Counted from the first letter of the whole stretch, positions 4,061 to 5,104 are shown. The stretch: DNA of 60,622 nt, filler included, from Squatina squatina (GCA_031763465.1; 4 parts of 4 records of this genome joined end to end with filler, not necessarily neighbours in it); one strand, 5' to 3'. Numbers and translations are program-made. The notes: generated by a model from the letters alone, not told the origin.

Positions 4061-5104
4061 ATGTTTTCGACGTCGAGGACCTCGTCGCCCGGGCCGGGCT
4101 CGGCGTCGACCACGGGCGCCTGCCAGGAGCGCCAGTCCGAGGTGGCCAACTGCGAAACGACCGAGAAGGACCTGCAGGACGGCATGCAGGAGGGCAAGGA
4201 GCAGATCAAGGAGCTCAACGAGCGCTTCGCCAAGTACATCAACAACACGGTGATAAACCTCCAGCGCAAGAACAAGGAGCTGCTGGCCGAGCTCAAGAAG
4301 CTGGAGAAGGAGGAGTTCAACGCGGTGGAGAAGGTCTACCAGAAGGACTACCAGGACTTCCAGGCCAGGGTGGATGAGATCCAGAACGAGTTGGTGCTGC
4401 TCAAGCTGGAGAAGGACAAGCTCAAGAGCAGGCTGGAGAAGGAGTGCCAGCTGAAGAGGGAGTTCGACCGGGACTTCCAGGAGCTCAAGAAGCGCTACGA
4501 GGACTCGGGCTCCGGGCTGGAGAAGATCCAGTGCCAGTTCAAGATGCTGGAGGCCCAGCTGNNNNNNNNNNNNNNNNNNNNNNNNNNNNNNNNNNNNNNN
4601 NNNNNNNNNNNNNNNNNNNNNNNNNNNNNNNNNNNNNNNNNNNNNNNNNNNNNNNNNNNNNNNNNNNNNNNNNNNNNNNNNNNNNNNNNNNNNNNNNNNN
4701 NNNNNNNNNNNNNNNNNNNNNNNNNNNNNNNNNGCTACCGCCACAAGTTCGAGGAGAACAGCATCCCCCTGCAGAAGCTCAAGAAGGAGACCGAGGGCTA
4801 CCGCAGCGCCATGACCGACCTGCGGCTGCGCGACGAGATGCACAAGAGCCACCTGCAAGAGAAGGAGCGGGAGATCAACCGCATCAGGGAGTACAACAAG
4901 GTGCTGGAGAAGAAGATCGAGTCACACACGGCCGACTTTCAGACTCTGGTCATGGTTAAGAACGGGCTGGAGCAAGAGCTGTCCGGCTACAAGAGCCTTT
5001 TGAATCAAGTGGAGAAGAAGTCGAGGGACTATTCCTCTCCGCCTTGTATCACGGCTGGCCCCACCAAAGCTGCGGCGGAAGATCTCAACAAGATGTGGTG
5101 TTAG
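4061..5104 (+). CDS. Divergent cytoplasmic intermediate-filament protein (type III/IV- or keratin-like), apparently single coding exon; gap at 4562-4733
   Basis: Coil-1A motif KEQIKELNERFAKYI (consensus LNDRFAxYI) and coil-2B end FQTLVMVKNGLEQELSGYKSLL (consensus YQxLLxVKxxLDxEIATYRKLL). Heptad-rich rod, Ser/Gly/Thr-rich head, strong GC3 codon bias, and the same frame on both sides of the gap. Confidence 0.85.
   Translation: MFSTSRTSSPGPGSASTTGACQERQSEVANCETTEKDLQDGMQEGKEQIKELNERFAKYINNTVINLQRKNKELLAELKKLEKEEFNAVEKVYQKDYQDFQARVDEIQNELVLLKLEKDKLKSRLEKECQLKREFDRDFQELKKRYEDSGSGLEKIQCQFKMLEAQLXXXXXXXXXXXXXXXXXXXXXXXXXXXXXXXXXXXXXXXXXXXXXXXXXXXXXXXXXXYRHKFEENSIPLQKLKKETEGYRSAMTDLRLRDEMHKSHLQEKEREINRIREYNKVLEKKIESHTADFQTLVMVKNGLEQELSGYKSLLNQVEKKSRDYSSPPCITAGPTKAAAEDLNKMWC

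Follow-up and report, generated by a model that had tools for sequence, protein, structure and literature searches.

In the window analysed here (60,622 nucleotides of Squatina squatina DNA, in which separate scaffolds are joined at 13655-13754, 29542-29641 and 46852-46951 by spacers of 44 N, TTAATTAATTAA and 44 N), we identified a single-exon gene for a short-rod intermediate filament (IF) protein (gene A; 4061-5104, + strand). Gene A belongs to a family detected only in cartilaginous fishes, whose members lack the coil 2 stutter and reverse the usual charges of head and rod, and it is likely a retrocopy of an intron-bearing IF gene, older than the divergence of sharks and chimaeras. To the explanation that we favour as a whole, combining a likely retrocopy, a stutterless short rod and dimers likely needing a partner, we give an even chance.

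The open reading frame of gene A comprises 347 codons, from the ATG at 4061 to the TAG at 5104. Of these, 58 are touched by a gap of 172 N (4562-4733) covering the end of coil 1B, linker L12 and the start of coil 2, and the readable part is free of stops in one frame, with a GC3 of 0.92 over 290 readable codons; both the intact frame and the strong GC3 bias reported in the initial annotation were therefore borne out. In the HMMER search that had been proposed as a check, the Pfam Filament model matched the gapped product with 54 bits (E=2.6e-14, cut-off 40), and each half alone was matched with 36.3 and 26.1 bits. The best relative of the product in the PDB is vimentin, which was also recovered by profile alignment with the family at E=4e-24. 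The frame at 4061-5104 is thus an IF gene. Spanning the position of the gap are 58 residues in 21 of 22 orthologous or paralogous proteins (60 in the alignment for the last, P0010), and contigs from relatives (runs X1 and X10), as well as a 743-base contig from the genome-sized run X2, cross it at equal length. Since 172 N match the 58 residues carried by orthologues, the gap conceals no intron, and the coding region is intronless, as it had first appeared to be; this state was read from DNA in the window and in the relatives' contigs, the named orthologues being seen as proteins. At the level of the family, the gap, for which closure had been suggested in case it hid introns or stops, has exactly the length of the coding sequence.

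A search with the reading frame returned 29 proteins, every one from sharks, rays or elephant shark, and a profile built from 17 members added five more, corresponding to four family members and one lizard keratin (49 bits). Against 1.84 billion representatives, the top ten rows for this profile included seven family members or fragments, the first match outside the family was desmin (93.7 bits) with nothing intervening, and no member was found outside cartilaginous fishes. Orthologues of gene A (group A) were named in 21 species comprising sharks, rays and one chimaera. At readable positions, gene A is 91% identical to its sawshark orthologue (287 positions), 81-86% identical to those of seven further elasmobranchs, and 70% and 59% identical to those of elephant shark (a chimaera) and Narcine, respectively. 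Of the original description as a lineage-specific gene, the restricted lineage stands, but it takes in all cartilaginous fishes sampled and not Squatina squatina alone. The ratio of pN to pS, intended as a check on neutral evolution, was 0.26 (pN 0.034, pS 0.127, uncorrected; 242 codons compared with run X1), calculated from 38 coding differences, being those listed among 43 places counted. No group A protein was among the matches for Scyliorhinus canicula or S. torazame, in both of which group B, described below, is present; loss, poor annotation or merging into LACTB are possible reasons. Elephant shark possesses at least four family genes (P0009, P0011, P0030 and P0032/P0037), three of them on contigs of different size, and one of these, P0011, groups with A and may represent a second retrocopy.

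Alignment to a vimentin profile and to desmin assigned positions 4193-4561 (+) to coil 1A, which carries one additional residue in the helix-initiation motif, to L1, and to most of a coil 1B that is 7 residues short. Coil 2 resumes after the gap (4734-5014, +) and ends in a diverged helix-termination motif. In total, the rod comprises 273 residues in group A and 274 in group B compared with 305 in desmin, and is thus 32 shorter for A; relative to desmin and vimentin, coil 1A gains one residue, coil 1B loses 7, the first half of coil 2 loses 8 in A or 7 in B, and a further 18 are missing across the stutter. While the absences of 7 and 18 residues from coil 2 that were originally noted were recovered in the vimentin and desmin alignments, the 25-residue shortfall which they imply falls below the rod total of 32, as it omits the shortened coil 1B, the insertion within the motif of coil 1A, and a single-residue loss that orthologues place under the gap. 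The suggestion that the losses keep the coiled-coil phase does not hold for all of the changes, as coil 1A is longer by 1 and the early part of coil 2 (its first half) shorter by 8. The span from motif to motif is 258-260 in 40 family rows, compared with 290 in desmin and a commonest value of 293. Indels of 7 or 11 residues are known from lamin rods (PMC4448529, accessible part). We also observed that four killifish and perch desmin- or vimentin-like models (P0048, P0054, P0055 and P0052) independently lack the same 7 coil 1B residues, which suggests a site where deletion is tolerated.

Removal of the stutter, initially raised as a possibility, was evident from the pattern of a and d positions, which places coil 2 of gene A in a single unbroken heptad register. 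Counted back from the final Tyr, a/d hydrophobicity in group A is 0.66 versus 0.11 over 13 heptads with no shift, and none of 17 A or 12 B proteins shows a register shift, which is 3 in 20 canonical rods. Among 96 non-family rods, 13 could not be aligned for stutter spacing; of the 83 that could, 75 keep the 81-residue spacing, four drop whole heptads yet retain the stutter, two have other spacings, and two, both single unverified models, are spaced 77 and so stutterless by count. Stutter loss is thus rare among IF rods, and is here fixed across a whole family. Models stutterless by count include P0052 and P0117. Within coil 2, a Pro after the FEE motif, just before an a position, is conserved in all A members and is a possible hinge.

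The rod is flanked by a head of about 44 residues (4061-4192, +), which from orthologue heads is net acidic and poor in Arg and aromatic residues, and by a Pro-rich tail of about 30 residues with a conserved end (5015-5104, +). Head and tail are 44 and 30 residues in the nearest orthologue, close to the 45 and 30 first estimated, and vary across the family from 30 to 44 and from 28 to 50 residues, respectively. Pfam identifies only the Filament domain and the alignment places Cys as the last residue, in agreement with the stated lack of a lamin Ig tail domain and CaaX box. The SSYRRxFGG nonapeptide of Arg-rich type III heads (PMC11121635) was absent from 19 of 19 aligned heads. Among nine family members measured, heads carry net charges of -2 to -6 and rods of -1 to +5, compared with +4 to +7 and -15 to -20 in four reference IFs; orthologue heads have a net charge of -4 with 2-3 Arg, while three long-headed references range from +5 to +7 with 6-10 Arg. 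With an acidic head and a neutral rod, the family is the reverse of canonical IFs. Both IF consensus motifs at the rod ends, as first reported, are recognisable and are the best-conserved parts of the family, though altered through the added coil 1A residue and a diverged termination motif that is less diverged in B. A monomer model of the orthologue P0001 (pTM 0.28) comprises helices at 24-193 and 198-324, a break at L12 and disordered ends, with pLDDT <50 for residues 1-29; L1 aligns with that of desmin free of gaps, yet shows no helix break in the model. Searched with Foldseek, this model had no matches at E<=0.001, which is unsurprising for two long helices. In the group A tail, a terminal Trp-Cys is conserved in 9 of 10 aligned orthologues, representing a possible disulphide or lipid site.

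From these features, we propose that the product of gene A forms a parallel coiled-coil dimer that would be about 4.7 nm shorter than that of desmin (32 x 0.148 nm), and that it may have lost both known drivers of type III self-assembly, namely a basic head that binds the acidic rod and a stutter for end-to-end annealing. Loss of both would make it a subunit requiring a partner, polymerising as filensin and nestin do. Paralogue B would be the most plausible partner, since no other protein with this rod geometry was found, and the resulting filament might have a shorter axial repeat and a restricted cell type. Chances are roughly equal, by analogy, that the protein is such a partner-dependent, filensin-like filament subunit. 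Charge pairs between g and e positions do not discriminate among the dimers (A-B 7:2, A-A 6:2, B-B 8:2).

A homopolymer was also considered, in which loss of the basic head, the neutral rod, stutter loss and shortening would have co-adapted towards a new filament geometry. Consistent with self-assembly, head and rod charge have shifted together in all nine members, 44 of 65 coil 2 b, c, e, f and g positions are conserved between sawshark and chimaera, and the g-e pairs of the homodimer are favourable. A precedent is also provided by isomin, whose head is short and acidic, whose coils are basic and whose stutter is altered, and which, as reported in the accessible part of PMC3065449, forms filaments alone in vitro, such that a short acidic head and altered stutter do not force a partner. 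Conversely, vimentin from which the stutter was removed by engineering is blocked in elongation and halts at unit-length filaments (PMC3087291, PMC4277352), filensin, which is 29 residues short in coil 2, forms no regular filaments alone (PMC2119801), and the short-headed nestin is unable to homopolymerise (PMC11121635), all according to the sections available of these papers. Self-assembly of the gene A product is therefore somewhat unlikely, though the strongest of the alternatives. Rather less probable is that the protein forms no polymer at all and acts as a soluble coiled-coil dimer or tetramer in the role of a scaffold or IF-associated linker, a role ascribed to syncoilin. Alteration of both end motifs that mediate head-to-tail overlap, the lack of an L1 break in the monomer model, and Pfam Filament scores of 85-110 bits in four full-length members (compared with 181-379 bits in 30 other IFs) would fit such a role, but the end motifs are still the best conserved and L12 is kept, which fits selection on polymer contacts.

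Evidence for the origin of gene A was obtained from group B. These proteins are 46-50% identical to A with the same short rod, and the two genes are found on contigs of unequal size in all 14 elasmobranchs compared, so that B sits on another chromosome. Splice forms of B omit blocks of 32 and 53 residues, and read-through models show further junctions. Three of the B junctions align with those in desmin, vimentin and hagfish models, a fourth matches what we take to be the type III exon 1/2 position, and a fifth falls within a deletion. The exon series of B reads 20, 32, 53 and 29 residues, compared with 20, 32, 54 and 42 for desmin in the same alignment, and the first exon of the gene extends from the head to mid coil 1B, as does the unspliced contig reading frame P0035 from its start codon. 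At least six B junctions were identified, all missing from A. Together, the intronless A and the intron-bearing B elsewhere in the genome bear out the retroposition put forward initially; the short rod, presented as part of the same retroposed novelty, is likewise real, but came from the parent and not from retroposition, given that intron-bearing B shares it. A and B each form a clade with chimaera members (support 100 and 80, respectively), and since both include elephant-shark members, the retrocopy likely predates the shark-chimaera split, some 410-420 million years ago.

Very probably, then, a type III/IV-like gene in the cartilaginous-fish stem lost rod segments at the level of exons 1, 4, 5 and 6, and a spliced mRNA of this shortened gene then integrated between TPM1 and exon 2 of LACTB, ahead of the shark-chimaera divergence; gene A would now be driven by a CpG-island promoter, with some transcripts sharing exons with LACTB. 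Were the introns instead lost piecemeal after a DNA-level or whole-genome duplication, one might expect what is also observed, namely old paralogues at 46-50% identity and at least four members in chimaera, and neither a poly(A) remnant nor a target-site duplication is to be expected at this age. Such an account is nevertheless improbable, given that all of the at least six junctions are gone from A, which lies between two unrelated genes of another chromosome (though paralogous synteny with B is possible).

Phylogenetic analysis, suggested earlier as a means of classifying the gene, resolved one distinct family clade but did not fix its class. In trees of 71 and 35 rows, the family forms a single clade whose stem measures 1.7 changes per column, where class labels of unnamed rows were drawn from the first tree and Pfam heads. 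The more careful tree places the family beside types III and IV at an open node, and it falls outside both keratin clades in the free trees, while approximately unbiased (AU) tests reject none of the placements (p-AU 0.277 for type III, 0.058 for type I keratins and 0.083 for type II keratins). It is the exon layout, and not sequence, that points to type III, the intron positions of which are present in B, with none in A. Keratin genes have exons of 83 and 157 bases in type I and an extra intron early in the rod in type II. B does not share this layout, with its 20- and 32-residue exons and uninterrupted coding from the ATG as far as mid coil 1B. In a protein-cluster atlas, only generic IF clusters were nearest, with the phakinin cluster (0.95) level with those of keratin and internexin. 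This proximity to phakinin might hint that the family is orthologous to one of the known divergent IFs (filensin, syncoilin, nestin or synemin, IFFO, or thread keratin) and has evolved rapidly in cartilaginous fishes, and our trees contain no rows named as filensin, syncoilin, nestin, IFFO, lamin or thread keratin; filensin, moreover, is likewise short in coil 2 and head (PMC2119801, accessible part). This identity is nonetheless very improbable, as the 17-member profile passes from the family straight to desmin, no tail resembles the 438 residues described for filensin in the same source, and the junctions of B are type III-like while nestin-type genes possess neurofilament-type introns (PMC2075511, in part).

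Examination of the surrounding sequence recovered the tropomyosin, LACTB and Rab genes of the TPM1-LACTB-RAB8B block as initially stated, the names TPM1 and RAB8B presumably applying on the basis of known synteny and a bird TPM-LACTB gene model (P0298). Upstream, Pfam and tblastn located terminal tropomyosin exons at 117-200 and 2108-2190 (+), the latter matching P0298 as the last coding exon of the gene, with a 3' UTR extending in a relative to at least 3537 (X10 contig, depth 482). Downstream, LACTB exon 3 (6967-7157, +; Pfam Beta-lactamase, 71.5 bits), belonging to a neighbour or host gene, is flanked by AG and GT and is 100% identical to sawshark LACTB over 64 residues, and Rab exons follow at 11018-11078, 12462-12551 and 12665-12730 (+; Pfam and tblastn). 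A tblastn search with 17 LACTB proteins (hits inspected for 6) recovered neither LACTB exons 1 and 2 nor any from exon 4 on in the window, and within 7158-13654 the first Rab exons were also not seen, nor, in a single motif search, was RPS27L, which we assume from human synteny to lie there; the scaffold carrying gene A (1-13654) is fragmentary, and the later LACTB exons, the first Rab exons and RPS27L probably sit in its many 100-N gaps. Elsewhere in the window, a different scaffold carries a single-exon lipoyltransferase (LIPT1-like) reading frame (56536-57663, +; Pfam LplA-B_cat, 180 bits), and about 2.5 kb of pyrimidine-rich, low-complexity sequence (approximately 18500-21000) contains long F/L/S reading frames that are not a gene.

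Synteny in other chondrichthyans, proposed as a check, revealed the LACTB neighbourhood to be common down to chimaera. Group A and LACTB occur on contigs of equal reported size in 10 of 10 species with both, and gene models of bamboo shark, whale shark and chimaera (P0182, P0187 and P0238) fuse the IF reading frame to LACTB exon 2, from which it follows that gene A precedes this exon on the same strand class-wide. In two carpet sharks, the IF protein itself bears the RefSeq label 'LACTB isoform X3' (P0184 and P0185; XP_072409206/7 and XP_060709932). A genuine IF-LACTB fusion protein was rejected: both domains occur in 1 of 120 listed LACTB proteins, the old chimaera model P0238, whose junction falls on a sequence that resembles the end of exon 1 by chance, while sharks have a normal, separate LACTB exon 1, indicating a modelling artefact, and P0182 and P0187 are false fusion models of the same kind. 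In spite of the fragmentary scaffold and the 58 codons unread in the window, an artefact or pseudogene (a mis-scaffolded contig, a stop or intron within the gap, or a dead copy) is refuted at the family level and has a negligible probability, given full-length orthologues in 21 species, a gap of coding length, conserved linkage and the pN/pS of 0.26, though a species-private stop may exist within the Squatina squatina gap.

Transcription, for which RNA sequencing had been suggested, was indicated in a relative, although no run listed as containing gene A is on file as RNA. Run X10, tentatively classed as RNA automatically and from its pattern of coverage, has depths of 482 over the TPM1 3' UTR, 44 over gene A, 165 over LACTB exon 3 and only 1-2 at 5846-6167. 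A contig of 1806 bases from this run covers 4058-5793 and breaks off 13 bases past an ATTAAA signal (5775-5780), where depth drops from about 30-44 to 1-2; this defines a likely 3' UTR (5105-5793, +), and is what a polyadenylated mRNA of about 1.8 kb would produce. At its 5' end, the contig carries 91 bases without a match upstream within the first scaffold, and the transcript may either begin at a promoter of its own or be joined by splicing to LACTB exon 1. In raw RNA of another relative, 5 and 9 gene A reads occur in 1.7 and 1.5 billion letters, so that these two samples express it weakly or not at all. Runs X1, X4 and X5 were rejected as evidence of expression, as they contain the coding part and repeats only, with neither the TPM1 UTR nor LACTB exon 3 covered in X4 and X5, and resemble gene-capture libraries. 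The elephant-shark protein AFK11078.1 (GenBank) belongs to a series that we take to be full-length cDNAs.

Immediately upstream of the coding region is a CpG-rich candidate promoter or 5' UTR (3872-4060, +; GC 0.67, CpG observed/expected 0.92) holding two GC boxes, a CT tract, and three CTAAC[CG]G words (3872-3960), presumably MYB-like. The rest of the window contains two more, for a total of 5, and the three compare with 0.05 expected, for a motif picked post hoc and with two of the copies within a short duplication. The CT tract (3988-4060) is accompanied by AG at 4048-4049 and 4058-4059 before the ATG, a possible splice acceptor; phase-0 splicing from LACTB exon 1 to either AG would be out of frame with the IF reading frame. 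Also observed, by back-translation only, were a twice-repeated peptide in the N-terminal extension of Narcine P0010 that could be encoded by CTAAC[CG]G-type DNA and, further upstream, a peptide encodable by a CRE and an RFX X-box. Together, the MYB-like words and the CRE/RFX-type peptides would fit a germ-line promoter. A sperm-tail role for such a retrogene with MYB-like motifs found no support in the accessible part of PMC11276731, and is retained as a candidate lead.

No published description of the family was found in the freely accessible articles covered; the available portions of PMC8733776 and PMC4448529 do not mention it, nor does the main text of the elephant-shark cDNA paper (PMC3466250), as far as accessible, mention the protein. 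Databases hold its members as automatic predictions labelled vimentin-like, desmin-like, GFAP-like or LACTB isoform X3. We therefore advance, tentatively and at slightly less than an even chance, that these proteins constitute an undescribed class of vertebrate cytoplasmic IF, restricted to cartilaginous fishes and retained there for more than 400 million years as two to four genes, which builds filaments with a rod about 10% shorter, no stutter and reversed head and rod charge. In the accessible parts of previous accounts, the coil 2 stutter is called obligatory in all IFs and the conserved lengths of coils 1A, 1B and 2 are stated to be an IF hallmark (PMC3065449, PMC4277352, PMC8466517). If true, our proposal would provide a natural exception to the rule that stutter and basic head are required for filament growth, a rule which for the stutter rests on one engineered vimentin mutant stopping at unit-length filaments. 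With a long-conserved, naturally stutterless, short-rod and charge-reversed family that includes two small proteins (about 40 kDa), A and B, the contributions of the stutter and of electrostatics between head and rod become testable. The findings would also add a vertebrate IF subfamily hidden under borrowed labels, and a clear, dated example of IF retroposition in which the parent gene survives.

Among known systems, lamins are distinguished from the family by a coil 1B that is 42 residues longer, an Ig-like tail and CaaX box, compared with a shortened coil 1B, a Filament-only Pfam profile and Cys in last position here. The springtail IF isomin shares a short acidic head, non-acidic coils, an altered stutter and a diverged termination motif, but its unrelated, lamin-length protostome rod keeps a 2-residue discontinuity where that of the family is wholly gone (PMC3065449, in part). 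The killifish and livebearer 'desmin-like' models P0048, P0054 and P0055 have independently lost 7 coil 1B residues and coil 2 heptads; these, however, group with desmin, and P0054 and P0055 keep the stutter (spacing 67 = 9x7+4). For type IV genes (neurofilament/alpha-internexin), a retrotransposed intermediate has similarly been proposed, though challenged (accessible part of PMC2075511), but type IV rods are of normal length with a stutter, whereas gene A has no coding introns and its intron-bearing parent survives. With type III IFs, the family shares its best matches outside the family (desmin, 93.7 bits, and vimentin) and, in paralogue B, the pattern of 20-, 32- and 53/54-residue exons with a first exon from head to mid coil 1B, but differs by its rod of 273-274 residues versus 305, which is stutterless with +1 in coil 1A, by an acidic head of 30-44 residues without the nonapeptide, by a rod charge of -1 to +5 versus -20, and by the intronless state of gene A. 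Filensin (BFSP1), compared by its description in the accessible part of PMC2119801, has a short head, a shortened coil 2 (by 29 residues, versus 26 in the family) and a diverged end motif in common with these proteins; its tail of 438 residues contrasts with 30 in the family, in which coil 1B is also short, and its rod is given as 279 residues compared with 273 here, where boundaries may differ. By analogy, filensin thus represents the closest precedent for how the gene A protein may work.
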